UHGV virus genome: UHGV-0181887
Reading direction: 5' to 3' (one strand)
Source of the DNA: a virus
Length of the DNA stretch: 29,701 bases
The position numbers and the translations under genes were made by a program. Under the pieces are notes generated by a model that was not told the origin of the DNA, did not search any database, and worked only from the letters and a program-made list of their open reading frames with translations. The number at the start of each line of letters is the position of its first letter. Positions within the stretch are counted from its first letter, which is position 1. Below, in pieces: positions 1 through 29,408 of the stretch.

Positions 1-40
1 TAAACCCTGTTTTCCTTGCCATAGACACCATCCCTGTCTT

Positions 41-67
41 CCCCCACATGATGTGGGGGTTTTTTTT
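41..67 (+). terminator. Rho-independent terminator-like hairpin (CCCCCACAT-G-ATGTGGGGG followed by a T-run of 8) at the left prophage boundary
   Basis: Perfect 9-bp inverted repeat at 41-59 followed by T8 at 60-67, read directly; plus-strand orientation suggests the 3' end of a flanking host transcript and the attL vicinity. Confidence 0.5.
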
Positions 68-145
68 ATCAATAACTTACGCATAACCCCAAGTAAAAAC
101 AGCTACTTATAAAAGGCTGGAGCCAGCCTGAGCCGTTTTGAATTT

Positions 146-6882: not shown

Positions 6883-7098
6883 GTGAAAGCAAGTTATATC
6901 AGTTACTTTGAAGGCTGCAATGCGGCAGGTCATGTTGTTTTTGCTGGTAATGGATCAGCCACGGTTGAGTATGATGATGGTGATTGCGTTGATCCGGGTG
7001 GGTTTCTTGATTCTCATAAGGCCGCGCTTTTGAAGGCGGCCCAGGCGAAAAATCCTGGTGTTGTGTTCGTTTATATTAAGAATATTGTAAGGCTCTAG
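6883..7098 (+). CDS. Small hypothetical protein (71 aa) in accessory island 1
   Basis: GTG start with GAGGT 7 nt upstream; followed immediately by a hairpin terminator; occupies the P2 orf91/tin/old region. Confidence 0.45.
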   Translation: MKASYISYFEGCNAAGHVVFAGNGSATVEYDDGDCVDPGGFLDSHKAALLKAAQAKNPGVVFVYIKNIVRL

Positions 7099-7106
7099 AC
7101 TGCTGC

Positions 7107-7136
7107 AAAGGCCGCCTTGTTGGGCGGCTTTTCTGC
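7107..7136. terminator. Bidirectional intrinsic terminator between convergent genes
   Basis: GCCGCC-TTGTTG-GGCGGC hairpin (7111-7128) followed by TTTTCTGC on the plus strand; A-rich flank gives a weaker T-tail on the minus strand. Confidence 0.6.
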
Positions 7137-7144
7137 AATGGAGG

Positions 7145-7648
7145 TTACTTGTTTTTTTTGAGTGGGTTCTTTTTCCATCGCTTAACTAGCCACTCGAATT
7201 CTTGATAGGTGGTCTCTGAGTTAATGTGCTCTCTGATGGCTTTAATCAGCGGTTCGGCAATATCAAACGTTTCAATTACAGTGCTGTAAGATGTGCGTTT
7301 GATCATCTCTTCGTTATAGATGCCCTCACGAATGCTGACCGCTACTCTTTCGTAAAAATTCAGAATGTACTGAAATTTTCGACGCTCAACCATTTCATCT
7401 TCAGTGATAGCACCGCCATTGCATGGGAAAACATAAGCGCGAAAAGATTTTCCTGAACGATGTACCTGTTTTAAAACGTGGAGCGATTCTAGGTATTGCG
7501 CGTCCTGGCGGCTCTCAAATAAAAAGTTTGCAGTCTGCGTTTTCTTTGCCGTTCGAACGTTGTAGATAATCGTTACGATAGCGGCAACAACACCGAGAAA
7601 AACAACGGCGCTGCTAATGATGGAAAGTGTGTTTGCGTCGAGAGTCAT
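7145..7648 (-). CDS. Membrane-anchored protein of unknown function (N-terminal TM helix, about 135-aa cytoplasmic domain); candidate exclusion/defence gene
   Basis: 167 aa from ATG 7648; hydrophobic segment LSIISSAVVFLGVVAAIVTIIY; visibly AT-richer than flanking phage genes; lies in the P2 tin/old variable locus next to cos. Confidence 0.6.
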   Translation of the reverse strand: MTLDANTLSIISSAVVFLGVVAAIVTIIYNVRTAKKTQTANFLFESRQDAQYLESLHVLKQVHRSGKSFRAYVFPCNGGAITEDEMVERRKFQYILNFYERVAVSIREGIYNEEMIKRTSYSTVIETFDIAEPLIKAIREHINSETTYQEFEWLVKRWKKNPLKKNK

Positions 7649-7660
7649 CAAATTTTATCC

Positions 7661-7688
7661 ATAAAAAAGGCGGGGTAAAATCCCCGCC
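7661..7688 (-). terminator. Intrinsic terminator immediately upstream of the membrane-protein gene (attenuator-like)
   Basis: Minus-strand reading GGCGGGG-AUUUUA-CCCCGCC followed by UUUUUU; sits between the 11-codon leader ORF and the 7648 start codon. Confidence 0.6.
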
Positions 7689-7706
7689 TCGTAGAGGTCA
7701 TGCGGC

Positions 7707-7742
7707 TTAGAAGCCGTCAAATTCATCAAACATATTTTTCAT
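7707..7742 (-). CDS. Putative 11-aa leader peptide MKNMFDEFDGF
   Basis: ATG at 7742 preceded by AGGAGG with a 6-nt spacer (minus strand), stop TAA at 7709-7707, then the terminator 18 nt downstream; coding status unproven. Confidence 0.35.
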   Translation of the reverse strand: MKNMFDEFDGF

Positions 7743-7794
7743 AACCAACCTCCTCAGATTCTGCTGTAACCACGCGCAGTGGTTGTATGTGACA

Positions 7795-7823
7795 AAATTA
7801 CCCCAAACGTAATAGGTAGTCAA
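7795..7823 (-). promoter_or_regulatory. Candidate sigma70 promoter for the leader/membrane-protein unit
   Basis: Minus-strand TTGACT (7823-7818), 17-bp spacer, TAATTT (7800-7795), a weak -10; a 14/16 near-palindrome TGCGCAAATTTGCACA at 7855-7870 lies upstream. Confidence 0.25.
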
Positions 7824-7967
7824 ATAAACGGTCACTTTTTTACCCGCACAATAGTGCGCAAATTTGCACAATAAAATCATTACCGATTTTTGGCGGTAAC
7901 GCCTGTAGTGGTGCTGGTTGGGCGTAGATCTGCAAGTGCACGAAAACACGCGTGATCGTTGCGCGCA

Positions 7968-7986
7968 GGTGACGGGGGGAAAGCCC
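7968..7986. other. Putative cos cohesive-end site
   Basis: GGTGACGGGGGGAAAGCCC resembles the P2/186 19-nt cohesive end as recalled from memory; located between island 1 and portal gene Q as expected for a P2 prophage. Confidence 0.4.
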
Positions 7987-8171
7987 GCGCGGCAGGGTAG
8001 GTAGGGGGATGCCTCAAACATAGGAAAATTGGCGCAATTCTGGCGCGCTGCTGCGTTCTGTGTGTTGTGTGCGGGTAGTGGCGTGTTTAGATGATGAGGT
8101 GCTTAGAATGGCGCTGGCGCGCCGTGTGTTGATGTGATGCGGAGAGCGCCGCCGGGGTGGCGGCGGTGTGG

Positions 8172-15012: not shown

Positions 15013-15538
15013 GCGTTGCTCCATCGCCGTGATTGTTGCCCTGGGCTTATCAATGTCGCCCGATGCGCTGAGAACGTCGCTGGAAGCACAACAAAAAATA
15101 GCCTCCTGGGAAGACTGCCGTAACACGCCTTATTACTGTACCGCCGGAGTGTTGACCGTGGGGATCGGCTCCACCGGTGGTGTGGAAAAACGCGAGTATA
15201 GCAACGCTGAAGTAGCGCGCCGGTGGGTTAGTGATATGCAGCATTCTGAACGCTGCGTAAACCAGAACTTCAACGGCGAAGCGATGCCGCAAAAGGTGTT
15301 CGAAAGCATGGTTGATGGCGGGCTGAATGTGGGTTGTACGGGCCTGATGTGGTTTACCGATAAACAGGGCCGCAAACAGCGTACAACCATCTGGAAAAAT
15401 GCCCAGGCTCACAACTGGGGCGGCGTTTGTGATCGCTTAACTGACTTTGTAAACAGTGCCGGTAAGCGCTCGCAAGGGCTGGTCAATCGGCGCACTGACT
15501 TTCAGGCGTGGTGCCGGATGGATGCGGGGGCGCAATGA
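14990..15538 (+). CDS. K: Endolysin, T4-lysozyme-type, with N-terminal signal-anchor-like segment (P2 gpK position)
   Basis: Motif WEDCRNTPYYCTAGVLTVGIGST matching the E-x8-(D/C)-x5-T catalytic pattern; N-terminal CSIAVIVALGLSMSP hydrophobic stretch. Confidence 0.8.
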   Translation: MTMKTVIKRCSIAVIVALGLSMSPDALRTSLEAQQKIASWEDCRNTPYYCTAGVLTVGIGSTGGVEKREYSNAEVARRWVSDMQHSERCVNQNFNGEAMPQKVFESMVDGGLNVGCTGLMWFTDKQGRKQRTTIWKNAQAHNWGGVCDRLTDFVNSAGKRSQGLVNRRTDFQAWCRMDAGAQ

Positions 15539-15909
15539 AAGCAGTTTTATGGGGTTTGGTGTTAGCCGCTCTTACTTACGGGGCCGGGTATTACCGGGGA
15601 TATACAAGCGGCGTGGCGGATGACAACGAACAGAAGTTACAGCGCATGTTTGATGAAAGTGAAGCCGTGATAGGTGAAATGCGTGATCTGTCTGCTGATG
15701 CGCGGGCGGTGCTGGCTGAGGCCAAAAAAGCGGAACAAACACGCAACCTGGCGGGTGAAGAACGCCGTAAAAACATAACTGAGGGGATGCGTGATGATTC
15801 GTGTGCCGGTGCTCTTGCTCCTGTTGCTGTCAGTGATGGGTTGCTCAGGAAAAATCAGAGTTCAAACGCGGTTGATTCACGAGCCGATACCGGAAAGCCT
15901 GACCGATGA
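15535..15909 (+). CDS. lysB: Inner-membrane spanin (Rz-like, P2 LysB position)
   Basis: ATG 15535 overlaps the K stop; N-terminal TM (AVLWGLVLAALTYGAGYY) then charged coiled-coil-like region. Confidence 0.7.
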   Translation: MKAVLWGLVLAALTYGAGYYRGYTSGVADDNEQKLQRMFDESEAVIGEMRDLSADARAVLAEAKKAEQTRNLAGEERRKNITEGMRDDSCAGALAPVAVSDGLLRKNQSSNAVDSRADTGKPDR

Positions 15910-16520: not shown

Positions 16521-17155
16521 ATGCCGGTGATGTTCACGCGCTGGATCAGTATTTCGCAGACATCCTGGCGGGGGCGTCATCCAGTGGGCGGGCCAGAACG
16601 GCGCGCGCCGTGGGTAAGGTTTTACGAATTAGCCAGCAACAGCGCATACGCGCACAGCGCAACCCGGACGGAAGCCAGTACCCGTCACGCCGCCGTAAAA
16701 CGCTGCGCACCCAGCAGGGGATCGCCTTTATCTGGGAAGGGCAGTTGCGCCGGTTGAAAAACTGGCACAGCGGGCGCGGTAAGTACGGGCGGACTATTAC
16801 CGGATTTGATGAAGACCGTAATGAGATCCGCACGTTCTACCGTGCCGATATTGAACGCTATACGGAAATTAATACCCGCGCGGGCCAGCGCTCAAAAGTG
16901 GTCAAGGCACCAATGTTTGTAAAGCTGAGAACCGCCCGCTTTATGAAAGTGAAGTCATCAAGTGAGGGGGCTGAGGTGGGTTACAGCGGTATGGCGGCCC
17001 GTATCGCCCGCATTCATCAGTACGGGTTGCGTGAACAGGTGGGCCCGGGGGCGTTTGCGAAGTATGCGCCGCGTGTCCTGTTGGGGATCTCTAAGGCCGA
17101 TGAAGCGCTGATCCGTAGCGCGGTGATTAACAGCCTGGGGAGTGCCGGGGCATGA
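16517..17155 (+). CDS. S: Tail completion / virion morphogenesis protein (P2 gpS-like)
   Basis: 212-aa ORF coupled to R (ATGA overlap); position as P2 S. Confidence 0.7.
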   Translation: MNAGDVHALDQYFADILAGASSSGRARTARAVGKVLRISQQQRIRAQRNPDGSQYPSRRRKTLRTQQGIAFIWEGQLRRLKNWHSGRGKYGRTITGFDEDRNEIRTFYRADIERYTEINTRAGQRSKVVKAPMFVKLRTARFMKVKSSSEGAEVGYSGMAARIARIHQYGLREQVGPGAFAKYAPRVLLGISKADEALIRSAVINSLGSAGA

Positions 17156-17733
17156 GTGCCGAACTGTTGCGCCTCCTGTCTAACGTGCTCCGCGTAGGCG
17201 TGGTTTTTGCCATATCGGAAGACGGCAAGAGTGTGCGGGTGCAGAGCGATGATTTACAGACAACCTGGCTTCGCTGGACGACAACGCGCGCCGGTGCTTT
17301 TAAATTCTGGTGCCCACCATCGCTGGGCGAGCAGGTTTTGCTGGGATGTATGGGCGGCAATCCTGAAACAGCCGTTGTGCTGGGTAGCCTCTACAGCAAC
17401 GACAACGACGCCCCCGCCAGCAGTCTGATGCAGATGATAATCACCGCACCTGATGGGGCTGAATTTAGCTATGACGCGAAGGCGGGCGCACTGAGTGCCG
17501 GCGGCATGAAAACCGCCACAATCCAGGCTGCAACGAAAGTCACGCTTGATGTGCCGGAGGTGGAATGTACTAACCACCTGAAAGCGAAAACATTTGATTT
17601 CACTGAAGGCGGCAAGATGACCGGAGATGTAGATCACAGCGGCGGCGCACTGAAGTCAAACGGCGTCCAGGTTGATGATCATGACCACGGCAAAGTGCAG
17701 CGCGGCGATGCATGGACGGAGGGTATTAAATAG
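17152..17733 (+). CDS. V: Baseplate spike / assembly protein (P2 gpV-like)
   Basis: 193-aa ORF, first of the V-W-J-I-H-G baseplate/fibre run. Confidence 0.8.
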   Translation: MSAELLRLLSNVLRVGVVFAISEDGKSVRVQSDDLQTTWLRWTTTRAGAFKFWCPPSLGEQVLLGCMGGNPETAVVLGSLYSNDNDAPASSLMQMIITAPDGAEFSYDAKAGALSAGGMKTATIQAATKVTLDVPEVECTNHLKAKTFDFTEGGKMTGDVDHSGGALKSNGVQVDDHDHGKVQRGDAWTEGIK

Positions 17734-18101
17734 TGACGGCGAAATATACGGGAATGAACCAGGGCAGCACTGGGATGGTTTCAGATAGCGATCACCTGTG
17801 GCAATCCGTGAAAGATGTCTTGCTGACGCCGCTGGGGTCACGCGTAATGCGCCGGTCATACGGCAGCTTGTTACCTGATTTGCTGGACGCGCCGAAAAAC
17901 GAGACAACACGCCTTCAGCTAATGAGCGCCACGGTGATTGCGCTGACGCAATGGGAGCCGCGGATCGCATTGAACCAGGTCGATATTACGTATTCAGACG
18001 CGGGGGCCGTGACGGTTGAGTTAAGCGGATTGATTACCACAACAATGCAGCCGGTAAGCGGCGCGGTAAAAGTGAAGGAGTCAGGCAATGGCAACGGTTG
18101 A
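17733..18101 (+). CDS. W: Baseplate protein (P2 gpW-like, gp25-like fold family)
   Basis: 122-aa ORF after V; size as P2 W (115 aa). Confidence 0.8.
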   Translation: MTAKYTGMNQGSTGMVSDSDHLWQSVKDVLLTPLGSRVMRRSYGSLLPDLLDAPKNETTRLQLMSATVIALTQWEPRIALNQVDITYSDAGAVTVELSGLITTTMQPVSGAVKVKESGNGNG

Positions 18102-18981
18102 TTTATCTGAACTTCCACCGCCGGAGATTATCGCGACGCTCGATTATGAAACCATTCTGAGTGAAGTGATAGCGATGATCATTGCCGCATACCCGGAAGA
18201 AAAACAACTGGCAATAGCGGCGGCAATGGCGCTGGAGTCAGAGCCCCTGACCGTGATCGCTCAGGTGTTTTCCTACCGGGAATTGATGTTGCGACAAACG
18301 GTCAATGACGGTGCTGGCGCTTGCATGTTGAGTCACGCCAACGGCGGCAATCTGGATAACCTGGCGGCAAATAACAACACAGAGCGACTGACGATTGTTG
18401 AGGCGACAGATACAACGGATGCGGTAATGGAAAGCGACGCCGCGCTGCGCTTACGTGCGCAATCGGCATTCGATGGGCTGAGTGTTGCCGGGCCTACCGG
18501 CGCTTACGAATATTTTGCTAAAAGCGCATCGGGGAAAGTTGCTGATGTTAAGGCATCAAGTCCGGCACCGGCTGAAGTTGTTGTTTCGGTGCTCTCTGCT
18601 GAGGGTGACGGAACGGCTTCAGACGAGCTGATCGCAACGGTCAACGCAAAGTTATCAGACGAGAGTATTCGCCCCGTTGGTGACCGGCTGACAGTCCAGA
18701 GCGCTGAGATTATCAGTTATGACATCAATGCCACGCTGTATCTCTACCCAGGCCCAGAGTCTGAGCCCATTGTGAACGCTGCTGAGGCGTCGTTGCAGAA
18801 GTGGCTCAAAAGCCAGTGGCGGATCGGGCTTGATGTTGCCAGGTCTGCAATTTTGGCGGCGTTACACGTGCAGGGCGTGCAGCGTGTGGAACTGGATTTA
18901 CCTGAACGGCTGATTATCAGCGATACACAGGCGGCGCGGTGCGCTTCGGTCACCATCACGAGAGGCGGAACCGATGAATAA
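18088..18981 (+). CDS. J: Baseplate wedge protein (P2 gpJ-like)
   Basis: 297-aa ORF; size as P2 J (302 aa); synteny. Confidence 0.8.
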   Translation: MATVDLSELPPPEIIATLDYETILSEVIAMIIAAYPEEKQLAIAAAMALESEPLTVIAQVFSYRELMLRQTVNDGAGACMLSHANGGNLDNLAANNNTERLTIVEATDTTDAVMESDAALRLRAQSAFDGLSVAGPTGAYEYFAKSASGKVADVKASSPAPAEVVVSVLSAEGDGTASDELIATVNAKLSDESIRPVGDRLTVQSAEIISYDINATLYLYPGPESEPIVNAAEASLQKWLKSQWRIGLDVARSAILAALHVQGVQRVELDLPERLIISDTQAARCASVTITRGGTDE

Positions 18982-19588
18982 CAGTCTGTTGCCACCTTCA
19001 GCCAGTGATTTTATGCGCGGTGCCGAGGCCGCAACCTGGCGCGTGAGTGATTTGCCCGTAGACCTGAAAACGCTGTGGAACCCTGATGAATGCCCGGTTG
19101 CTTTACTGCCTTATCTGGCCTGGGCGTTATCGGTTGATCGCTGGGATAAAGGCTGGTCAGAACAGACAAAGCGACAGGTGATTAAATCCGCCTGGCTGGT
19201 ACACCGGCAAAAGGGAACTATTGCGGGGCTGCGCCGTGTCGTTGAGCCGTTCGGCTTCCTGATAAAGGTCGTTGAATGGTGGCAGAACGGAGGCGAGCGG
19301 GGAACATTTCAACTTGAAATTGGTGTTTCTGACTCAGGGATTACAGAAGAAACCTATCTCGAGCTTGAGCGCCTGATCGCTGATGCAAAACCATGCTCAC
19401 GCCACCTGACCGGCCTTGCAATCAGTATGCAGGCGAAGGGAGAGGTATACGCCCACGCCGGGTGTTATGGCGGTGACGTGATGACTATTTACCCCTATAT
19501 GCCTGAAGCCGTAGAAGTCAGTGGCGGGTATTTTCCCGGGGGCGCAATTCATATTATTGATACGTTAGAGGTAACAAATGGCGGCTAA
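18974..19588 (+). CDS. I: Baseplate protein (P2 gpI-like)
   Basis: 204-aa ORF overlapping J stop and H start; synteny. Confidence 0.8.
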   Translation: MNNSLLPPSASDFMRGAEAATWRVSDLPVDLKTLWNPDECPVALLPYLAWALSVDRWDKGWSEQTKRQVIKSAWLVHRQKGTIAGLRRVVEPFGFLIKVVEWWQNGGERGTFQLEIGVSDSGITEETYLELERLIADAKPCSRHLTGLAISMQAKGEVYAHAGCYGGDVMTIYPYMPEAVEVSGGYFPGGAIHIIDTLEVTNGG

Positions 19589-20864
19589 ATTCTTTGCCCT
19601 GCTGACTGCTCAGGGGGCGGCAAAATTATCAAATATGGCTGCGCTGGGTGAGAAGTTAGAAATCACCTCGCTCGCAGTTGGCGACGGCGGCGGCAAATCA
19701 CCAACGCCAAACCAGGCACAGACAGCGCTGGTTAACGAGGTGCGCCGCGCCCAGCTTAACTCGCTGTCAGTGGACGATAAAAACGACAGCCAGATTATTG
19801 CGGAGCAGATTATTCCTGAATCCGTTGGCGGGTGGTGGATTCGTGAAATAGGACTCTTTGACGCTGATGGTATCTTGATTGCTGTGGCTAACTGCCCGGA
19901 GACGTACAAGGCCACAACAGAGGAAGGATCAGGCCGTACGCAGGTTATCAGGATGGTGCTCACGGTATCGAGCACTGATGCCGTTACCCTGAAAGTTGAT
20001 CCATCGGTTGTGCTGGCAACCCGGCAGTATGTTGATAGTGCTGTAATTGAGGTGAAAACCTATACAGACAACGCGATAAAAAAGCACGTTGACACCGCTA
20101 ATCCGCATAGCCAGTACCTGTTGATTGAAAATGCTCTTAAAGAATTGATTAAGGCCGGGTTGGTTGGAGAGGCTATCAAAAACCTTGGTTTAGATAAAAC
20201 AGTTCAATTAGCAGCCGATGCGTTACCTGCTTCTGGTGGGAGGGTTACTGGTGATGTGATTGTTGAAGGTATTATCTCAGCAGTCGGACACGAAATGATC
20301 GTGGAAAAAGAGAGTGGTTTTTCAGGTATTCATATCAAAAATAAAAGCAGTGAAAATGGAAGTGCATGTGGTTTGGATTTTTCATTTGGTGGAGCAATTA
20401 TGTCGTCGATTATTTGCGGCATAATGGGAAACGGCGCGAACTATATTGATTTTGCTTTATCTCCATCAGGGGAGATCTCCGATCGTCGAGTTAATGCATT
20501 CACAATGAATGCTGATGTGAAAAAATTGATTTTTCAGAATGATTGGGGCATTCAGGGGTATGTGAAAAATACAGACTTTACTCAGGTAATGGCTGATGCC
20601 GGTTGGGTGCGTTTTCCAAATGGAATAATTTTACAGTGGTGTTGGGGGAATACTGATGGTGGCGGCTGGGCTTCAGCCCCTTTTCCTATTGGTTGGCCTG
20701 TTCGCTGTTTTGGTATCTTGCCATGCAATGTGGCTGGTAATGCAGCAGCGTCGGCGATTGCTGGAGTTAAAAGATTAAGCGATCGAGATATGCAGGTTTC
20801 TTTATTAGAAAGAACAGGCGCCGCTGCGTCAAAACCATTCTTTTGCTTTGGTGTGGGGTGTTAA
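19578..20864 (+). CDS. H: Tail fibre protein (P2 gpH-like N-terminus, divergent AT-rich C-terminal receptor-binding region)
   Basis: 428 aa; conserved N-terminal anchor region; the 3' third (about 20200-20864) is visibly AT-rich; shorter than P2 H (about 669 aa, from memory). Confidence 0.8.
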   Translation: MAAKFFALLTAQGAAKLSNMAALGEKLEITSLAVGDGGGKSPTPNQAQTALVNEVRRAQLNSLSVDDKNDSQIIAEQIIPESVGGWWIREIGLFDADGILIAVANCPETYKATTEEGSGRTQVIRMVLTVSSTDAVTLKVDPSVVLATRQYVDSAVIEVKTYTDNAIKKHVDTANPHSQYLLIENALKELIKAGLVGEAIKNLGLDKTVQLAADALPASGGRVTGDVIVEGIISAVGHEMIVEKESGFSGIHIKNKSSENGSACGLDFSFGGAIMSSIICGIMGNGANYIDFALSPSGEISDRRVNAFTMNADVKKLIFQNDWGIQGYVKNTDFTQVMADAGWVRFPNGIILQWCWGNTDGGGWASAPFPIGWPVRCFGILPCNVAGNAAASAIAGVKRLSDRDMQVSLLERTGAAASKPFFCFGVGC

Positions 20865-20866
20865 TT

Positions 20867-21298
20867 ATGTTTAGTAATATATATTTCAGTGCTAAGAATA
20901 ACTCATTCTTTTTTGAGTCAATGAAATCAGACTATGAAAAAACGAATACTTGGCCTGATGACATTGTTGAAGTTGAATCTGATATTTATCAGAAATACAC
21001 AGGAAGGCCGCCAGAAGGAAAAGGTAGAGGAGGCGACGCTTCCGGTCAGCCTGTATGGGTTGATGTATCAGAGCCTACAGCCGATCAGTTAATTGCGTTA
21101 GCTATACAGCAAAAAAAAGACTTGGCTGAAAATGCAGGTACAGAAATTGCGTGGCGGCAGGATGCGATTGAAGCTGGTATTTCAACCGATGATGAAGTTA
21201 TTCAGCTTGCGAAGTGGAAGAAATATCGGGTGCTATTGATGCGTATTGACACATCAAAAGCCCCCGACATTATCTGGCCTGATATCCCTGAGGATTAA
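20867..21298 (+). CDS. G: Tail fibre assembly chaperone (Tfa, P2 gpG position)
   Basis: 143 aa from ATG 20867, directly after H; AT-rich; the conserved Tfa-like C-terminal half is a family assignment by position and size. Confidence 0.7.
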   Translation: MFSNIYFSAKNNSFFFESMKSDYEKTNTWPDDIVEVESDIYQKYTGRPPEGKGRGGDASGQPVWVDVSEPTADQLIALAIQQKKDLAENAGTEIAWRQDAIEAGISTDDEVIQLAKWKKYRVLLMRIDTSKAPDIIWPDIPED

Positions 21299-22263
21299 TT
21301 TGATAGGCTTTTTAGTCTAAAGTTTGCAATTAAATTATCTTTAATGATATTAGCTATTGAATAGCTAATGCAAATAGTGCATGCGACTGTTGTTATGACT
21401 AACCAATCAGATGCAAATTGTTTTGCAAGCTGAATGGCATAGATTTGTATAAGATATATGTTTTTTGAGTGCTCGCGAATTGTGAAGGTGTTTTTTGTTT
21501 TCAGGGTGATATCTAGCACTTTTAAAAAAACAAAAACACCAGCGAACGGAAGTGAAAAAAGCATATCAAAGGTATATGTGCCATATGAATAATTTACGGA
21601 TGCCTCAATGATGACCAAAATAATGGAACCAATGAGTAAATATGTATTGTTATTTCTTATATTATTTTTATTTATAAGGTATCCAAGCATAAATAATGGA
21701 AAACCCATGAAAAGACCGTTTCTGGAAAAGAAAACTGTAGCGAGAGACCATATATCACGATTTATGTCAATGGCATAATTTGCGCGATATTGAAGTAACG
21801 TGCCGCACGTATAAAGTATGCAGCATATGATTATTGATGTGCGATCTTTTAGCTTAGCTAAAAGTAATGTTAATAATGCCGATACTATCAGGGCAGGGAA
21901 AAACCATAAGTGCCAAAATCCAAATACTGCATTTAGAGATAAATATGTAAGGTCTGTCGCTAAAGGTTTACCCGCCCTAATAAAACCAACTAACCCTAGT
22001 ATTATTGGCAAGTAAAGAAGCGTCCATAGAGCATAGGTTTTTATATTGTGAGAAAACCATTTTTTAATTTTATTTTTTTGCATTACAGAAAAATAAAAAT
22101 ACCCACTAGTAATGAAAAAGAATGGCACTGCAATCCTTAGAAGTCCCTGGCAAGTAACATATCCTATATAATTACTGTTGCCGCCTAAAATGTCTGTGTG
22201 TATAAAAATAATACAAAACGCAAAGAAAAGTTTTGCGTAATCAATTGAGGAAAGGTTTTTCAT
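21295..22263 (-). CDS. Acyltransferase family 3 integral membrane protein (OafA/Oac-like O-acetyltransferase candidate); lysogenic-conversion moron
   Basis: 322-aa polytopic membrane protein with about 10 hydrophobic segments; strongly AT-rich by eye; antisense to the late operon at the P2 Z/fun variable position. Confidence 0.7.
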   Translation of the reverse strand: MKNLSSIDYAKLFFAFCIIFIHTDILGGNSNYIGYVTCQGLLRIAVPFFFITSGYFYFSVMQKNKIKKWFSHNIKTYALWTLLYLPIILGLVGFIRAGKPLATDLTYLSLNAVFGFWHLWFFPALIVSALLTLLLAKLKDRTSIIICCILYTCGTLLQYRANYAIDINRDIWSLATVFFSRNGLFMGFPLFMLGYLINKNNIRNNNTYLLIGSIILVIIEASVNYSYGTYTFDMLFSLPFAGVFVFLKVLDITLKTKNTFTIREHSKNIYLIQIYAIQLAKQFASDWLVITTVACTICISYSIANIIKDNLIANFRLKSLSN

Positions 22264-22388
22264 ATAGAGTCTAGTCGCGCAATTAGGAAGAATGTGGTTA
22301 TTTTACTTACAAAAATTCTAAGGGCAATCATTTAGTCTGCACAATTTACACATAATTGAGCAAAATTAGAGCCAGGTCTCTTGTTGCT

Positions 22389-22424
22389 CCCCTCGGTGAA
22401 AACCAATCCGAGGGGGATATTTTT
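22389..22424 (+). terminator. Intrinsic terminator (plus-strand orientation) at the right end of accessory island 2
   Basis: CCCCTCGG (22389-22396), 11-nt loop, CCGAGGGG (22408-22415), then GATATTTTT; U-tail only on the plus strand, so likely ends the V-G late transcript. Confidence 0.5.
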
Positions 22425-22430
22425 ACTTGT

Positions 22431-22919
22431 TTAAAACAGACTGGATGCGGCAGCGCTGATATTATTCAGCGCTGAGTTGGCTGTGTTTTGTAGGTTGCTG
22501 AGTAAATCACTCACTGATGAAGACTGGAGGCTTTCGCGCAGGTCTTCATCCTGCCTTTGAAACGTGATCGTAAATTCTATTTTCTTCGGCTCCCCATACT
22601 GGTCAAATTCAGTATCGGTTGTCTGAAGCTGCGTTATCGAATACATGCCATATATCCGCCCGGTGCCGCTGATAAGGGGCCAGGGGCGTCCGGTATATGC
22701 CTGTGTATCGAGCACAGTTAGACTCACCTTGCCGCCGGTCACTGAAGGGTACAAAACGCCGGATAGGGTGATTTGATCGTCACCTGCACCAATGTATTGC
22801 CACTTTGCCGATCGGTTTATGCGCTCGTTCTTCACATGCCGCCAGGTCTTTGACTGCTGCAATTGTTGGTGTGGAACGGTTTTTAACTCAAAGACGAACA
22901 TTCCGTAAACCATCATCAT
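22431..22919 (-). CDS. U: Tail protein U (P2 gpU-like)
   Basis: 162 aa; N-terminus MMMVYGMFVFELKTVPHQ resembles P2 U (recalled from memory); follows the tape measure gene. Confidence 0.8.
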   Translation of the reverse strand: MMMVYGMFVFELKTVPHQQLQQSKTWRHVKNERINRSAKWQYIGAGDDQITLSGVLYPSVTGGKVSLTVLDTQAYTGRPWPLISGTGRIYGMYSITQLQTTDTEFDQYGEPKKIEFTITFQRQDEDLRESLQSSSVSDLLSNLQNTANSALNNISAAASSLF

Positions 22920-22931
22920 TTTTTTGCTCTC

Positions 22932-25900
22932 CTAATCTTTGTCTCTGAAACTGCTGCCAGAGCGGGAACGCTTGTTAAGTTCCGCCACAACTGCTTCACC
23001 CACCATCCGTGCAATGTCGCGGGCGTCGTTGCTGAGATTGCCGTGCATATGAATGTGAATATGCATTTCATCAGGCGCGGTGTTTTGCGTCGGTCTGCTG
23101 GCTTGTTTACTGGATTGCCCGCCAATAGCCTGTACTTCAGCCGCCGGTTTAATCGGTGCTGATGCCGCTGTGATAGCGGGGCGTGCGCTAAGTTGGGCCA
23201 GGTTAGCGCCAGGGGTTGATTGTGCTTCCTGCCATGCGCCGTGGACGGCTAAAGCGCGGGGCAGATTTTTAAACACGATATCGCCAGGGCCGATCCGCTT
23301 TTTGGTTTCATCCAGCATCCCGCCGGTGTTGTCGGCAATTTTCTGTAGGCGTCGTTGCGTTCCTGTATCAGCGGCAATCACTGGTGACGGTGGGGCAATA
23401 GGTGGCGCGGTTACCGCTTTCACATCACCGGTGAGCGCGCTAACTTTATCCTGCAGCATAGCCAGTCCTGCCGGTGTTAACTCCTGCTGTATCTTTTGTG
23501 CCTTTGCTCTGGCTGCTTCAATGCCTGAAGGGATTAATCCCAACTTTTCCAGTATCCAGCCAATGCCTTTCATTAACCCCGTTAAGGGCAACATTAACCC
23601 CTGAAGCACCGCACCAAATACGGTGCCGAATCCATACCCGGCAATTTTGCAATCATCCAGCGTCTTTTGTGTTGTTTGCATTGGGCTAATCAGGTTTGTA
23701 AACCACTGCCACACTTGGGCGAGCGCATTTGAAATAACGCCAAATATCGGGGCTAGAGAGGAAAACGCAGTGATTAAAGGGGCGAGGGCATTAACCACAC
23801 CAGTAAAGAATCCCGCAAAGAAGGCTTTGATCGGCTCCCAGTATTTCCAGACCAGTAGACCTACCGCGATAAGCGCCGCGCCAATCAGTCCAATCGGACT
23901 CAGGATAAACGACAGCACACCGCCGAGAGCGGAAATTGCGGTTGTGGCAATGCTCATGATAGTGGGGATGCCGGACAATCTGAGGAGAAGGCCACCAATG
24001 CTCTTAGTTAGCCCACCAATCGCCGCCCCTGGCGACATAAACGCCCCCATCATAATTCCGCGTAACGGCGCAAGAATGCTGGTAAGTTTTCCAGTACTTC
24101 CCGCTATTCCGCCCAAAATTGGGCCCCAGGCCCGCGCGCTGCCAAGCGGCCCGGTAATGGCACCACCAAGACGACTGAATAGAGATAGCGCACCGCCAGC
24201 ACTGCCGGAACTTGTCAGCAGGGTAAAGCCGAGTTGCAGTTTTGCCAGCGGGCCAAGAAGTAAGCCAATAGCCAGAGACGTTGCACCAATCGCGGCGGTG
24301 AGGGCCAGCGCACTGCCGCCAACTACCAGAAGGGTTTTTGATAGCTGCGGATTCTTATTCGCCCATTCCGTCATCACGCCGATCGTACCGGTTAGTGCCT
24401 GGGTGAGTTTTCGCAGTGCGCCGTCCGCCAGTTCTTCAATCTGGATGCGGAACGCTTCCAAGGCGCTATCGAGTTCTTTTAGATCCCCGCCCAGGTTGTC
24501 CGCCATTTTTTTTGCGACGGTGGCGGATTCACCGGCGGCGCCCTGAAGTTCTTTTGTGAGCTTTTGTAGCTCCCCCGAACCTGCCGCCTGTACCAGCGTT
24601 TGAAGGCCCACAAAAGCCTCTTCACCGGCGATGTCCTTGAAGAACGATACCTGATCGACTTCGCCGTATTTTTTCGTGGCCTTGAAAAGGTCTGACAGCA
24701 CGGTTTCCATCGGGCGCATTTTCCCGTTGGCGTCGGCAACTGATACGCCCAACTCTGCCAGGGCTTTAGCCGCGGCTTTTGGCGGTGAGGCTAGGCGGGA
24801 AAGGCTGGAACGCATAGCTGTACCGGCGTCACTGCCGCGCAGACCGTTATTGGCAAGCATACCCGCCATAGCGGATGCCTCTTCCAGGCTAATTCCCAGA
24901 TTAGCCGCCACTGGCCCGGCATATTTCATTGTGTCGCCCAGGGCGCGCAGGTCGGTATTGGTACGGGTAAAAGCGGCGGTTAGCGTATCGCCAACCCTGT
25001 CCATCTGATCTGATGACAGCTTGAATTGCGTCAGGATGTTTGAACCGATATCAGCGGATTCGCCCAGATCCATGCCACCGGCTAACGCCATATTCAGAAC
25101 GCCAGGCAATGCGGCCTGAATTGACTGTGGTGTAAAGCCCGCCATTGCTAAGAAGGCTTGCCCGCTGGCGGCGTCTCGCGTGGTAAATGCGGTTTCAGCA
25201 CCCAGTTTTTTAGCCTGGGCGCGCATAGCGGCAAACTGTTCATCGCCCTTATCCAGGCGAGTCAGTGCACCTACGCGGGACATTTCCTCATCAAAACCAA
25301 CGGCTGGGGCCAGGAAGCGTCCGGCAGCGTAGCCCGCCCCCGCGCTTGCGCCAACAGCCATTGCGCCGCCGGTGCGTAGTTTGCCAGCCGTGGCGCTCAG
25401 ACGGTCATAGCGGGCGCGCGCGTTGGTGACTGCGGCAAGTTGTCGCCGTTCTCTCTCAAGCGTCTGGTTATATTGCTCAGTGCGCCTGATGGCGCTTTGA
25501 ATTGTGCGATCGCCGCCCGCCAGTGAGACACCGTGCGCGCGCAGCGCCTGGGACGCTTGCTGGAGTTTTGCTGTCTCCTGTGACCGGCTGGCATTCAGGC
25601 GATCAAGTTTCGCCGCCAGTGCCGTCATGCGCTCGCGCTGTGCGTCGGTTAGTACGGTGCCGTCCTTCTGGGCTTTGTTCAGGCCGTCAAAGGCGCGCTG
25701 TGTTGTAGTAAGTTGCTGGGCTGTCTTTTTAACGCGCTCATTCAGGCGGTTGAATGCCTGGGATTGCGTTTCCAGATCCTTGATAGAAGATTGTGTTTTT
25801 TTGAGGGATTCAGATAAGCCGCCCACTGAGTTGCGGGCGGCATTTACCGGGCGGGTTAACTTATCAATCGCACTGAAGGCGACACGAATATTAAGGTCTT

Positions 25901-25940
25901 TCATCTTCACTGTTTCCGCTTCGGATAGCCGCCCGCTCAC
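22932..25940 (-). CDS. T: Tail tape measure protein (P2 gpT-like)
   Basis: 1002-aa Ala/Gly-rich protein with coiled-coil N-terminus and hydrophobic glycine-zipper-like central segments; follows E/E'. Confidence 0.9.
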   Translation of the reverse strand: MSGRLSEAETVKMKDLNIRVAFSAIDKLTRPVNAARNSVGGLSESLKKTQSSIKDLETQSQAFNRLNERVKKTAQQLTTTQRAFDGLNKAQKDGTVLTDAQRERMTALAAKLDRLNASRSQETAKLQQASQALRAHGVSLAGGDRTIQSAIRRTEQYNQTLERERRQLAAVTNARARYDRLSATAGKLRTGGAMAVGASAGAGYAAGRFLAPAVGFDEEMSRVGALTRLDKGDEQFAAMRAQAKKLGAETAFTTRDAASGQAFLAMAGFTPQSIQAALPGVLNMALAGGMDLGESADIGSNILTQFKLSSDQMDRVGDTLTAAFTRTNTDLRALGDTMKYAGPVAANLGISLEEASAMAGMLANNGLRGSDAGTAMRSSLSRLASPPKAAAKALAELGVSVADANGKMRPMETVLSDLFKATKKYGEVDQVSFFKDIAGEEAFVGLQTLVQAAGSGELQKLTKELQGAAGESATVAKKMADNLGGDLKELDSALEAFRIQIEELADGALRKLTQALTGTIGVMTEWANKNPQLSKTLLVVGGSALALTAAIGATSLAIGLLLGPLAKLQLGFTLLTSSGSAGGALSLFSRLGGAITGPLGSARAWGPILGGIAGSTGKLTSILAPLRGIMMGAFMSPGAAIGGLTKSIGGLLLRLSGIPTIMSIATTAISALGGVLSFILSPIGLIGAALIAVGLLVWKYWEPIKAFFAGFFTGVVNALAPLITAFSSLAPIFGVISNALAQVWQWFTNLISPMQTTQKTLDDCKIAGYGFGTVFGAVLQGLMLPLTGLMKGIGWILEKLGLIPSGIEAARAKAQKIQQELTPAGLAMLQDKVSALTGDVKAVTAPPIAPPSPVIAADTGTQRRLQKIADNTGGMLDETKKRIGPGDIVFKNLPRALAVHGAWQEAQSTPGANLAQLSARPAITAASAPIKPAAEVQAIGGQSSKQASRPTQNTAPDEMHIHIHMHGNLSNDARDIARMVGEAVVAELNKRSRSGSSFRDKD

Positions 25941-26363
25941 GCCAGGCTATCACCTCACTCAGGGACATAGTGAAAACCTCTGAGGGCGGCCAGTTGAAAA
26001 TAACTGCTATATCAGCAACCAGATCATCGATCAGGTCAAAGTGGGGCGCGTTTACTCGCTCTCCGTCTCCGTCTCGTTCTTCGTGCCAGGCTCCTTCGGC
26101 GCTAAAAAAGGCGTTAGTACCTCGCAAAGTTCAACAAAGTCAGATGTTTCCATTTCACTGATTTCTTTGAGCTTCAGGCGTGGGGAAGTGCAGCGGGTTA
26201 ACAGGGTGCTGATGCTGTCCACGTCCATATTCATAACGTTCACCAGGCGAAGGCCGCGCAGGGAGCCAGCCTGTTTCACTTCGTCAGTGATCGTGATGGT
26301 TTTGATTTCGTTGCCGTCGCGGGAGATCGGGCGGGTCAGTGTTACGGTGTTTTCTTGAGTCAT
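25891..26363 (-). CDS. E+E': Tail assembly chaperone E+E' (product of -1 programmed frameshift)
   Basis: E frame 26363-26052 and overlapping -1 frame ending at 25891; translation across the slip site changes from ...LTPFLAPKEPG to ...LTPFFSAEGAWHEE, matching the track ORF 25891..26127. Confidence 0.7.
26052..26363 (-). CDS. E: Tail assembly chaperone E (P2 gpE-like)
   Basis: 103-aa ORF between the tail tube and tape measure genes; contains the slippery site near its 3' end. Confidence 0.8.
   Translation of the reverse strand: MTQENTVTLTRPISRDGNEIKTITITDEVKQAGSLRGLRLVNVMNMDVDSISTLLTRCTSPRLKLKEISEMETSDFVELCEVLTPFLAPKEPGTKNETETESE
26103..26109 (-). promoter_or_regulatory. Slippery heptamer T_TTT_TTA for -1 ribosomal frameshift (E to E+E')
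   Basis: Minus-strand zero-frame codons CCT TTT TTA GCG; slipping -1 gives TTT TTT AGC GCC, continuing into the E' ORF. Confidence 0.65.
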
Positions 26364-26417
26364 CGTTTTAATCTCCGGGCGGCATCACCACGATGCCGCG
26401 CCTGTAGTGGTTGTTGG

Positions 26418-26930
26418 TTACCCCATGCCCAGCGCGGACATCACGCGGGAAGGGTAAATATTTTCGCCGTTGCGTTTGTACACGAAGTTCAGCAGGTCAA
26501 TTTCCCAGATGGGCTTATCGTCAATTGACAGCTTGTAGTACGTGTTTTTAATGGCGTAGGTGACGGATGTATCTTCGCCCTGTTTGCTTTCGCCGCCGTC
26601 GATTTCGGTGAATTTGCCGCGCATTTCCACGTCAACGATCTGGCTTTCGCCGGATGTGTAATATTCCCCGGTGAATCGGATAAGCGTACCGTCCAGATCG
26701 CCGCCGTATTCCAGTAGCAAAGCCTGAACCAGGCCGCCTACAACCATCGTGGCATCAAGCGCGCCGCTATCCAGTCCGAGATCGACAGCAACAGAGCCAA
26801 TCATCCCGCCGCCCTGATAGTCGTCAGTTTTGCGGGTCAGTTTTGGCAGCGTGACAGATGTCACTTTGCCGATATTGTTCACGCTGTTCACAAAGCAGGT
26901 GAACAGCCGTAGTTTTGGTGGAATCGCCAT
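26418..26930 (-). CDS. FII: Tail tube protein (P2 gpFII-like)
   Basis: 170 aa; N-terminus and internal KLTRK...GGGM...VDLGLD segments resemble P2 FII (recalled from memory). Confidence 0.85.
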   Translation of the reverse strand: MAIPPKLRLFTCFVNSVNNIGKVTSVTLPKLTRKTDDYQGGGMIGSVAVDLGLDSGALDATMVVGGLVQALLLEYGGDLDGTLIRFTGEYYTSGESQIVDVEMRGKFTEIDGGESKQGEDTSVTYAIKNTYYKLSIDDKPIWEIDLLNFVYKRNGENIYPSRVMSALGMG

Positions 26931-28121
26931 TTAGTTACTCCCCAGAGACGAAAACGCGCCTTCAAAATATTCATCGGTGAACGTCTGGATCAGCGTCAAA
27001 TCTTCCATCGGTGGCACTGGCGTGTACTTGTAGCGGATCGCCACTTTGCCCTGAATCAGGTTTGCGGTTCCGTTGTCCACGATGTCAAACCAGGCTTCCG
27101 CGCCAAGCAACTTGCCAGCTGTGACCAGTGCACTGAGTTTCTTGTTAATCGCGCTCACCACGTCTTTCACGTTGGTCGGGGTGAGTGGCCCGTCAATGGT
27201 TTCAAATTGCGCCTCTGCGATGGTGTCCGCCAGGATTTGCGCCGTGCGGGTGTACACCTCAAACACAAATTCATTGGTGTCTGTGGTGCGGTTACCCCAG
27301 AAACGGAAGCCATTACGCTTGATGATGGTGGTGATTTCAGCGTTGTTCAGCGTCTGTGCGTCACTGTCTTCAGCCTGAAGCGCCCAGAAAACATCCTTCG
27401 AAATGCCAAGCACATTGCTGACGGCAATGTTAGATAGCGAGCGGTGCCAGCCGTACTGGTTATCAATAAACGCGCGCAGCCCTACCGCATAGGCCGGGGC
27501 CGGGAATACTTCATTTTCCCCGGACACCTGGTTATATGCGATGTAGTCAGGCCAGATCAGCGTGAGTTCGCGTGATGCGAAGGTTTTACGATACGCGAGG
27601 GCTTCCGCCAGCGTCTTGCAGCCGTTACAGCTTGCATAAACATAGGCGCGAAGCTGTTTGGCGATCACACAAAGCTGTGCCGTCACTTCTTCGGTGTCGT
27701 ATTCAGGAACCGCCAGGATGCGCGGTCGATACTGTGTCTTCTGTTCGGCAGTCAGAAGCGCATACATGCCGGTGTAGTTACCTTCAGCATCAGAGCCACC
27801 GATAATTAGTTGCGCTTGCGTTTTCGCTTCTGCGTCGCCTTCCAGCGGCTTGGCTGCGGCGACACGAACAACAATGACTTTCGCGCTTGCCTGGTCTGAA
27901 ATGGCTTTCAGCGTTTTGTACAGCGTCCCTGTTTTCCCCGCCTTGCCCAGCATCGACTGAGGCCGCGTGATAAGCGTTGGGGTGTTGAGTGGAAATGCGT
28001 CTTCGTCCGCGTCATCAGCGATGACAATTACGCCAATGACGCTGGAGTCAATGTCGTTAATTACCTTCGTGATGTCGGTTTCTTCTTTGGTGCGAGCACC
28101 GTGAAAACGTGTCTCAGACAT
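26931..28121 (-). CDS. FI: Contractile tail sheath protein (P2 gpFI-like)
   Basis: 396 aa from ATG 28121 (GGTGA RBS; track ORF begins 12 nt upstream at 28133); segments RPRILAVPEYDTEEV, IRRNGFRFWGNRT and YKYTPVPPMEDLTL resemble P2 FI. Confidence 0.9.
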   Translation of the reverse strand: MSETRFHGARTKEETDITKVINDIDSSVIGVIVIADDADEDAFPLNTPTLITRPQSMLGKAGKTGTLYKTLKAISDQASAKVIVVRVAAAKPLEGDAEAKTQAQLIIGGSDAEGNYTGMYALLTAEQKTQYRPRILAVPEYDTEEVTAQLCVIAKQLRAYVYASCNGCKTLAEALAYRKTFASRELTLIWPDYIAYNQVSGENEVFPAPAYAVGLRAFIDNQYGWHRSLSNIAVSNVLGISKDVFWALQAEDSDAQTLNNAEITTIIKRNGFRFWGNRTTDTNEFVFEVYTRTAQILADTIAEAQFETIDGPLTPTNVKDVVSAINKKLSALVTAGKLLGAEAWFDIVDNGTANLIQGKVAIRYKYTPVPPMEDLTLIQTFTDEYFEGAFSSLGSN

Positions 28122-28194
28122 GTTTGTCACCATTACGTTTTGTTGAGTTCGCCACCATGATTGCTGATTGACGTAACGGCTTCACGCCTTTCTG

Positions 28195-28223
28195 GTTGTG
28201 CTATCTCTCTGACAACTAAAACG
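28195..28223. promoter_or_regulatory. Late-promoter activator site (Ogr box TGT-N12-ACA) in the divergent FI/D region
   Basis: TGT 28197-28199, 12-nt spacer, ACA 28212-28214; 24 of 29 positions identical to the P/O element at 11021-11049. Confidence 0.6.
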
Positions 28224-28274
28224 AATTCTCCCACGCGCGCTCGCGTGGAATTATTCAGCAAAACGGGAGGGTGT

Positions 28275-29408
28275 ATGAGTGTTTCAGTGATCAGCAGTAT
28301 GATTTCGGGCGCGGCTGGCGGTGTCGATGACATCCTGACGGAGGCGTTAAAAATACCGGCATTCAGCGTCCGGCAGGGCGGAAAGGTGTTAACAGAATTA
28401 TCAGATCGCGTGATATCCATCAGCCTGACGGACAACAGGGGATTTGACGCCGATCAGCTGACATTAGAGCTGGATGATACTGATGGAAGCGTTGCCCTTC
28501 CGCCGCGCGGTGCTGAGTTGTCTTTCTGGCTGGGGTGGATGGGTGAAGCGCTGGTTTATAAGGGCGTGTACACGGTTGATGAAGTCGCGCATGACGGGCC
28601 GCCAGACCGTATCACGGTGACCGCCAGGAGTGCAGATTTCAGAGAAGAGTTTAACGTGAAGCGTGAAGTCTCCTGGCATGATGTGACTGTGGAGCGGGTT
28701 GTGTCCGCTATCGCAAAACGGTATGACCTGACGCCGCAAATCAGCGATCTGTTAATGGATGTGGAAATTGACCACGCCGATCAGACTCAGGAAAGCGATA
28801 TGTCATTTCTGACCAGAATGGCGGAAATGTTAGGGGCCATCGCCACGGTAAAAAATGGCAGTCTGTTATTTATCGTGCCGGGTGGTGGTTTCACAGCATC
28901 AGGGAAGGCTATTCCGTCGATTGCCATCACGCGCAGCAGTGGCGACCGGCACCGCTTCCGCGTTGCTGATCGTGACGCTTATACCGGCGTCCGCGCGTAC
29001 TGGCTTGATCTGAATTACGGGAAAAAGAAAAAGGTCAGTGTCCGCCGCCGAGCCACAACGAAAAAAAAGGATAAGAGCAGCAGCAGGGAAGGTGACTACA
29101 TTGAAGGCGCTGAAGGTAACGTTTTTATTATGCGTAAAACCTTCCAGAACGAAGAGGCCGCCAGGCGCGCAGCGGCGGCGAAGTGGCAGCAGTTACAGCG
29201 CGGCGCGGCGGAGTTTTCGATCACCCTGGCGCGCGGGCGCGCGGAGTTGTACCCGGAAATGCATTCGACGGTAACCGGCTTTAAGGCAGATATTGACGCC
29301 CAGGACTGGATAATCAGTAAGGTACAGCATGATGTTGATAGTAATGGATTCACAACACAGCTTAACTTTGAAGCAAAAATATCTGACTGGATCGCAGAAA
29401 CTGAATAG
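28275..29408 (+). CDS. D: Tail protein D / late control gene D (P2 gpD-like)
   Basis: 377 aa from ATG 28275 (GGGAGG RBS); the track ORF from TTG 28161 would include the promoter element; position next to ogr as in P2. Confidence 0.8.
   Translation: MSVSVISSMISGAAGGVDDILTEALKIPAFSVRQGGKVLTELSDRVISISLTDNRGFDADQLTLELDDTDGSVALPPRGAELSFWLGWMGEALVYKGVYTVDEVAHDGPPDRITVTARSADFREEFNVKREVSWHDVTVERVVSAIAKRYDLTPQISDLLMDVEIDHADQTQESDMSFLTRMAEMLGAIATVKNGSLLFIVPGGGFTASGKAIPSIAITRSSGDRHRFRVADRDAYTGVRAYWLDLNYGKKKKVSVRRRATTKKKDKSSSREGDYIEGAEGNVFIMRKTFQNEEAARRAAAAKWQQLQRGAAEFSITLARGRAELYPEMHSTVTGFKADIDAQDWIISKVQHDVDSNGFTTQLNFEAKISDWIAETE

Follow-up and report, generated by a model that had tools for sequence, protein, structure and literature searches.

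Since the work of Haggard-Ljungquist, Halling and Calendar in 1992 and of Sandmeier in 1994, the C-terminal parts of tail fibers have been known to be exchanged horizontally among P2, Mu, P1 and lambda. The stretch analyzed here (UHGV virus genome UHGV-0181887, 29,701 nucleotides [nt]; in its full length, "the window") corresponds almost exactly to a single P2-like prophage, and its tail-fiber locus consists of the fiber gene H, the tail-fiber assembly gene tfa and, convergent with these, a gene for an integral-membrane acyltransferase. Very probably, the region of low guanine-plus-cytosine (GC) content in this locus represents an imported, swapped host-range cassette (fiber tip plus cognate tfa) that lies beside a moron acyltransferase gene. 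This reading builds on direct observations: a break in composition, mosaic joints, relatives of the cassette in other phages, an orphan crossover site and, for the acyltransferase gene, its linkage to tfa and its conserved promoter.

P2 itself has the same gene order, with I, H and tfa (G) followed by a convergent, AT-rich, nonessential gene, and the same N-terminal H domain. In P2, however, the convergent slot after G is occupied by fun(Z), whereas the window has the acyltransferase gene there; furthermore, overlapping stop codons leave no space for a terminator between tfa and this moron, the FI-U tail block downstream is flipped, and the C-terminal 235 amino acids (aa) of the window H protein are unrelated to P2 H. 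With the invertible segments of Mu (G), P1 (C) and e14 (P), the window shares a crossover site at the joint between the constant and variable parts of the fiber gene and, in the case of Mu-like G segments, a tip-tfa cassette of ~72% identity. Unlike these Gin/Cin/Pin segments, it has one site, no invertase and no alternative cassette and, hence, cannot invert.

As for the gene behind tfa, the CFT073 P2-like prophage phi-b0847 carries neaT, a PF01757 gene of ~30% GC that was described as a phyletically rare moron in "moron position 2" (PMC3573123). Like the window gene, neaT is AT-rich, belongs to PF01757 and lies between tfa and tail genes, convergent with tfa and overlapping its 3' end; also, the distant relatives of both proteins are mostly found outside Proteobacteria. 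The possibility that the window protein is NeaT itself was rejected (BLASTP aligns 19 aa only; E = 0.002). Judging from the sequences, we consider the window gene to represent a separate AT3 lineage, recruited in parallel to NeaT rather than orthologous to it. Another precedent is Salmonella oafA, a proven O-antigen acetyltransferase gene that adjoins a phage tfa gene and umuD (PMC9426603), and the arrangement of tfa, acyltransferase gene, DinI and S24 peptidase at two of the loci discussed below (L011 and L012) resembles the oafA locus. The window protein shares the AT3 membrane domain, a histidine in transmembrane helix 1 (TM1) and an FFxxSG-type motif with Sf6 Oac and Salmonella OafA but, unlike OafA, does not contain an SGNH domain, and its similarity to phage O-acetyltransferases is weak.

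A low-GC block with mosaic joints

The features of the locus are, from left to right:

19578..20057, plus strand: H aa 1-160, P2-type N-terminal (baseplate-attachment) domain (Pfam PF12571; backbone composition)
20058..20172, plus strand: H aa 161-198, linker closing the "constant" part (GC, 0.439; GC at third codon positions [GC3], 0.526)
20173..20198, plus strand: predicted orphan crossover site of the Gin/Cin/Hin type, CTATCAAAAACCTTGGTTTAGATAAA, encoding AIKNLGLDK; left joint of the tip cassette
20199..20864, plus strand: H aa 208-428, receptor-binding tip, very probably imported, with C-terminal Gp53-like knob (AT-rich; PF21882)
20867..21298, plus strand: Tfa, tail-fiber assembly chaperone, 143 aa (PF02413)
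21295..22263, minus strand: integral-membrane acyltransferase (AT3), 322 aa (PF01757), convergent with tfa with a 4-nt stop overlap
22300..22327, minus strand: predicted sigma-70-type acyltransferase promoter (TTGCCC, 16 nt, TAAAAT), from a consensus scan and conservation
22388..22425, plus strand: hairpin CCCCTCGG...CCGAGGGG, GC-rich and with a T-rich run after it (fold, -20.3 kcal/mol; z, -2.15)

H (19578-20864, plus strand, 428 aa) follows a Tail_P2_I gene. GC content stays at ~0.53 to 0.56 across V, W, J, I and H aa 1-160 (0.531 for the latter), drops to 0.381 in the block from 20057 to 22430, versus 0.534 in the remaining window, and climbs back in U. In 300-nt windows, the backbone averages 0.535 ± 0.039, with a minimum of 0.42, and the block ranges from 0.31 to 0.47; inside the block, the values are 0.43 for H aa 199-428 (nt 20172-20864), 0.41 for tfa and 0.32 (0.324) for the acyltransferase gene. 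GC3 is not uniform across H, falling from 0.556 (aa 1-160) to 0.320 (aa 199-428), and amounts to 0.347 in tfa and 0.294 in the acyltransferase gene. Maximum-likelihood change points place the left break at 19966-20193, with a gain of 12.6 in GC3 log-likelihood, and the right one at 22356-22439. An earlier note on this DNA, made from the sequence alone, had described a sharp drop in GC in the distal third of H and in tfa and, together with the acyltransferase gene, one contiguous low-GC block of about 2.2 kb. The drop and the contiguity are real, but the low-GC share of H is its distal 54 to 63% (starting at aa 161-199) rather than a third, and the block is 2,374 bp long and, as discussed below, historically composite.

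The nearest different backbone relative is a prophage of Escherichia coli 30EVA2 (L002; ~80% identity). Homology to L002 ends at window position 20056 and is back at 22431, directly after the U stop codon; in the gap, L002 contains a Pin-type invertible fiber segment and a frameshifted invertase gene, and its inverted repeats agree with the published e14 P-segment repeats (PMC12529663). Window positions 20174-21257, comprising the tip and most of tfa, are ~72% identical at the nucleotide level to three other loci: Mu_3F6 (L003), where the relative is an alternative cassette within the G segment; a second Mu-like prophage, carrying Gin and Mom; and a lambdoid stf-tfa locus downstream of J and lom. 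A tip-tfa cassette of this kind is also carried by a Citrobacter myovirus. On the right-hand side, the last 85 to 155 nt of tfa and the acyltransferase gene (21143/21215-22263) are ~70% identical to three loci (L006, L014 and L018) with a fiber tip and a Tfa N-domain of an unrelated type, and in L018 the homology runs through the acyltransferase promoter (to 22314). Thus, the horizontally swapped receptor-binding cassette that the earlier note had proposed is supported both by the gap in L002 homology (20056-22431) and by the Mu-like and lambdoid relatives of tip and tfa, and such cassettes would circulate among Mu-like G segments, lambdoid side-fiber loci and P2-like phages.

Compared with the prophage of E. 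coli strain ES1 (L001), the cassette is 98 to 99% identical, and identity is 93 to 95% in the adjoining sequences for the H N-domain and the baseplate. Since the cassette differs by only 1 to 2%, as opposed to 5 to 7% in the flanks, the window and ES1 seem to have come to share it at a later time than the backbone. The phage nucleotide searches covered 50,697 phage records, among which megablast of window positions 17000-23500 returned zero matches; blastn with a word size of 11 was needed to reach Mu_3F6. Scans of viral contigs yielded one contig only, which was near-identical.

At the protein level, the N-terminal region of H is indeed of the P2 type, as had been noted (aa 1-150, Phage_tail_fib, PF12571; E = 1e-61), and over aa 1-180 the protein is 84% identical to H of L002. 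P2 H resembles the window protein over aa 25-193 only (46% identity, BLASTP), similarity ends there, and the shaft and C terminus are not of the P2 type. The remark that H has "only" 428 aa gave the correct length, but the fibers of related P2-like phages range from 324 to 479 aa (324 in phage Midge, and 411, 463 and 479), so that H is not unusually short. The linker (aa 161-198) is common to other P2-like fibers, with 64 to 66% identity over aa 162-205 to those of phages Midge, vB_EcoM-613R3 and RCIP0057 (tblastn), and at the DNA level is without a match in the nearest backbone relative, L002; on these alignments, residues 161-198 appear to be a short third piece of a mosaic fiber.

The tip contains a Gp53-like_C domain (PF21882) at aa 345-422 and is 68% identical to the alternative fiber tip of Mu_3F6. 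Its relatives (58 to 78% identity) form about 10 protein clusters, with named sources including E. coli and Citrobacter braakii. The three that were looked up are joined to Mu S, to lambdoid Stf and to other shafts, and in the protein alignment the NLGL motif marks the point where the shafts, a different one in each relative, are attached and where the spare-cassette relatives start. A sequence search of the PDB with H gave no useful match. Between window positions 20058-20864 and L001 positions 15059-15865, the codon differences in the tip are 9 nonsynonymous and 7 synonymous, as opposed to 5 and 25 in the H N-domain; these small numbers fit relaxed or diversifying selection on the tip.

Tfa belongs to the Caudo_TAP family (PF02413; E = 5e-33). 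Its gene starts with the ATG at 20867, 2 nt past the H stop codon, as annotated in the ES1 relative and with the same spacing as in Mu_3F6. According to the two-domain model (PMC9608196, summarizing structural work on TfaMu), the variable N-domain of Tfa binds the fiber tip and the conserved C-domain drives trimerization. The window protein follows this pattern: it shows 58 to 66% identity over its full length to Tfa proteins associated with the same tip type (66% to Mu_3F6 U'), while similarity (52 to 55%) to the 196-aa Tfa that accompanies the other tip type is confined to its C-terminal 65 to 78 aa, so that a variable N-domain covaries with the tip and a conserved C-domain (encoded by ~21143-21298) does not. 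That Tfa "matches" the tip therefore holds: compared with their Mu_3F6 counterparts, the tip shows 68% and Tfa 66% aa identity.

A single crossover site at the left joint

The Mu-like and lambdoid cassettes are homologous to the window from position 20174 onward; this is the first base of TATCAAAAACCTTGGTTTAGATAA, a sequence that aligns with the gix site of Mu_3F6, TTATCTAAAACCTCGGTTTACAGGAA (L003 2162-2204). Half-site scoring, which gives the known paired sites of L002 and L003 17 to 18 points, assigned 17 points to the window site and revealed no other candidate crossover site across the 29.7-kb window. Likewise, the gix-derived core pattern TATCNAAAACCNNGGTTTA has one exact match in the window (0.05 expected by chance) and, with up to 2 mismatches, no further match there, so no inverted partner site is present. 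No Resolvase-family open reading frame (ORF) was found among the window proteins scanned, the invertase slot being occupied by the acyltransferase gene, and there is no second tip or second tfa among the window ORFs. The sequences thus point to a tip that came from the pool of invertible cassettes, with the left joint as a relic site; because the window contains a single crossover site, no partner site and no invertase, the cassette is now fixed, and the phage would have one specificity.

A possible, if less likely, alternative is that the locus as a whole is the frozen remnant of an invertible fiber segment, from which a deletion took the second cassette, the second site and the invertase gene, with the acyltransferase gene replacing them. 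One well-formed crossover site has been retained at the constant/variable joint; L002, a backbone relative, has an invertible segment and a frameshifted invertase gene in the same slot; and at two E. coli loci (L018 and L019) an acyltransferase gene of the same family lies beside a Resolvase-type invertase gene and spare fiber tips. However, the sites of L002 are of the Pin/e14 type and lie at H codon ~344, versus a Gin/Cin-type site at codon 199 in the window, and the sequence between these positions differs, so that the two segments are not orthologous. Moreover, no relic of a second cassette or of an invertase gene was found within 21299-22430.

An acyltransferase gene joined to the 3' end of tfa

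The acyltransferase matches Acyl_transf_3 (PF01757; E = 1e-19) with 71.1 bits, against a gathering cutoff of 31. H22, R43 and the FFxxSGY motif (F50, S53, G54 and Y55) are invariant in nine members of the family; the TM1 histidine and the FFxxSG motif are the presumed catalytic motifs of Oac- and OafA-like enzymes. A crude Kyte-Doolittle scan shows 6 strong segments (the AT3 class has about 10 transmembrane helices). The family is small, with nine clusters at ≥46% identity; all others are at ≤35%, and, where a source is named, most of them belong to Clostridia and other non-Proteobacteria. In Pantoea stewartii, the 46% relative is encoded on the chromosome, between gnd and hisIE. Tblastn against the phage records gave no match, a profile search of genome contigs found only distant Rhodobacter proteins (28 to 30% identity), and distant-mode blastn of the gene against 5,426 complete E. 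coli genomes had ES1 as its sole match.

The ~70 nt 5' of the start codon are conserved, and neither the TTG of the -35 element nor the -10 element AGTAAAAT varies among six family members of different phage origin. Because these elements are conserved upstream of the start codon, the gene is predicted to have its own promoter. Upstream of the -35 element, a further conserved, partly palindromic element (22330-22360, minus strand; CAATTATGTGTAAATTGTGCAG in the window and CAATTGTGTACACAATATGCAG in L006) could be a binding site for a regulator. Another sigma-70 consensus match (10 of 12; TTGACA, 16 nt, CATTAT) lies at 21246-21273 on the plus strand, in the 3' end of tfa and antisense into the acyltransferase gene; it may be due to chance, as the scan gave no more sites than were found in shuffled sequence. 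At the right end of the block, just outside the U stop codon, transcription that runs on from the H-tfa operon may be stopped by the hairpin at 22388-22425; in L002, this position is occupied by a different terminator, of the classical kind. A role for the hairpin as a conserved terminator of the module was rejected, as it is present in the window and ES1 only and not at other acyltransferase loci.

In all relatives that were looked up (59 to 100% identity), the acyltransferase gene is convergent with tfa and touches its 3' end, in six locus types with two unrelated types of tip:

Type 1: the window's own type
Type 2: L006, a prophage with the classical P2 order
Type 3: L013, of the U-X-D-W-J-I-H type, with J-I-H-tfa genes in common with L011/L012
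Type 4: L011/L012, a degraded prophage beside DinI and S24 peptidase
Type 5: L014, a myovirus with a Wedge1/Sheath_initiator baseplate
Type 6: L018, an E. coli contig that also encodes spare tips, a WavE-family protein and a Resolvase-type invertase

The stop codons mostly overlap by 4 nt, with an overlap of 7 nt in L013 and a gap of 5 nt in L018. The other tip type is the P2/T4 "NIAFNLLVRAA" type, which comes with the 196-aa Tfa. On L018 (1-5325) and L019, both E. coli contigs, the acyltransferase gene (66% identity) is also situated directly 3' of a 211-aa Gp53-like_C ORF on the same strand, and its neighbors are the Resolvase-type invertase gene, a further putative tip ORF and a gene of the WavE family (resembling glycosyltransferases of the lipopolysaccharide [LPS] core). 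Convincing inverted crossover sites, which a classical invertible segment holding the acyltransferase gene should have, were not found there; these contigs may represent a multicassette fiber region gathering LPS-modifying genes.

This linkage raises the question of whether the whole low-GC block came in through one recombination event from an L011/L013-like phage, with the acyltransferase as the dedicated partner of the tip in a bind-and-mask unit. Both L011 and L013, on a different myovirus backbone unrelated to that of the window, are collinear with window positions 20243/20296-22263 over all three genes at 67 to 71% nucleotide identity; GC3 is alike in the three genes (0.29 to 0.35); and the 4-nt stop overlap and the junction sequence are conserved. 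Nevertheless, we consider this scenario doubtful. The same tip and tfa occur without any acyltransferase gene in Mu-like, lambdoid and Citrobacter phages, and the same acyltransferase family accompanies the unrelated "NIAFNLLVRAA" tip and its 196-aa Tfa. Additionally, acyltransferase identities (57 to 86%) do not sort by tip type; for example, L011 and L013 are 87% identical in H and 60% identical in the acyltransferase.

Because tip and tfa are found without the acyltransferase, and the acyltransferase with a different tip, the block is composite in its history, despite being contiguous and uniform in third-position composition. The imported cassette and its neighbor are therefore best regarded as two modules. 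L011 and L013 show, however, that the three genes are able to move together. The seam between the modules lies in the region coding for the conserved Tfa C-domain, which is well conserved at the DNA level and is a plausible substrate for homologous recombination. That the drop in GC merely reflects protein composition or selection on genes for fiber tips and membrane proteins, without foreign origin, is highly improbable: while the gap in overall GC between tip and tfa (0.41 to 0.43) and the acyltransferase gene (0.32) is largely an amino acid effect, since GC3 is alike, the fall in GC3 from 0.556 to 0.32 occurs within the single gene H, homology to the backbone relative ends at the same spot, and the same cassette is present in unrelated phages.

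Proposed working of the locus

On the basis of the protein families, H trimers would dock on the baseplate via the N-domain (aa 1-160, or to about aa 190 at the protein level). The variable N-domain of Tfa would bind its cognate tip and the C-domain would drive trimer assembly; Tfa would thereby fold the H tip and, by analogy with TfaMu (PMC9608196), may stay bound afterwards. The Gp53-like knob would, given its family, bind a saccharide on the cell surface.

P2 and Mu both use the LPS core. The acyltransferase would be a moron expressed in the lysogen, as its family, the conservation of its promoter and the precedents in other genomes suggest, and would O-acylate a surface polysaccharide of the lysogen, changing surface properties and possibly phage adsorption. 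By analogy, acylation of a surface glycan (O antigen, LPS or other envelope glycan) is its most likely activity; the class of receptor, the substrate and any masking of the receptor are what we infer from such comparisons.

Several points weigh against the reading of tip and acyltransferase given here. NeaT, the closest analogue by position, had no clear envelope phenotype in the reported assays (PMC3573123). The nearest named models for the window acyltransferase are VanT membrane domains, far below their cutoffs; its PHROG match ("O-acetyltransferase") is weak (E = 2e-5); and there was no relative in the PDB by sequence search and no PADLOC match. When the tip was modeled with AlphaFold2 on an alignment of 10 sequences, the result had a pLDDT (predicted local distance difference test) score of 43 and was unusable, and the knob fold is therefore assigned from the Pfam match. 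Finally, the failure of acyltransferase lineages to sort by tip type argues against a strict matching of receptor and enzyme.

More speculatively, the acyltransferase family could be a receptor-masking partner that overlapping stop codons weld to the conserved 3' end of tfa, with recombination in the tfa C-domain moving host range and surface-modifying immunity together. This idea, which would explain why every close family member examined occupies exactly the tfa-abutting position, seems unlikely to us; that acyl modification keeps this phage or others from adsorbing is about equally unlikely or, at best, slightly more probable.

Prophage setting

The early region comprises, besides the integrase, a repressor, Cox, a Dam methylase and the gpA replication protein:

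190-1170, minus strand: integrase

The head genes follow, with Q and P on the minus strand and then O, N, M and L. After these come the lysis genes and R, S, V, W, J, I, H and tfa, all on the plus strand. Beyond tfa, the acyltransferase gene and U-T-E-FII-FI are all on the minus strand, and D and ogr come last, on the plus strand (28161-29408), divergent from FI. The tail block FI-FII-E-T-U (22431-28133, minus strand) is thus flipped relative to the P2 gene order and convergent with the H-tfa operon; since ES1, 30EVA2 and two Logan contigs have this arrangement as well, it represents a trait of the lineage rather than an assembly error.

The ES1 prophage, which adjoins fieF, is 94.7% identical to the window, and the 90% cluster of the acyltransferase is made up of E. 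coli proteins; for these reasons, the host is almost certainly E. coli. At the left end, window positions 26-70 (45 nt) are 100% identical to L001 24814-24858, between ogr and fieF in the ES1 prophage, and probably represent the att core repeat for integration adjoining fieF. A second low-GC island (7000-8020; GC, 0.42 to 0.44) is located between gpA and Q, the P2 "moron position 1", and contains two ORFs, one of 104 aa without a family match and one for a DUF4760 protein (7145-7651, minus strand), neither of which has a PADLOC match; everything to the left of 7851, including this island region, is not common to ES1. Within the tape-measure gene T, identity to ES1 falls to 63 to 71% in window positions 23400-24300, with several indels, as opposed to 92 to 96% in most flanking 300-nt windows, which on this comparison marks a mosaic patch inside T.

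Implications for P2-like phages

Tail-fiber mosaicism next to a moron is textbook knowledge, and current understanding is not overturned by this locus. It does provide a fully delimited example of how the host range of a temperate phage is rebuilt from shared parts, with three edges: an invertase crossover site on the left, an internal joint in the region coding for the Tfa C-domain and an outer right edge outside the U stop codon. What is modestly new is the use of an orphan crossover site as a joint and a second, uncharacterized AT3 family that is consistently welded to tfa. With this second, unrelated AT3 lineage joining the NeaT-type pattern of an acyltransferase behind tfa, the slot appears to repeatedly recruit surface-modifying enzymes. 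For the prophage itself, a specificity similar to that of the corresponding cassettes in Mu-like and lambdoid phages is predicted. Its lysogens, in turn, may bear an extra acyl group on a surface glycan, which could matter for serotyping, phage typing and phage therapy.

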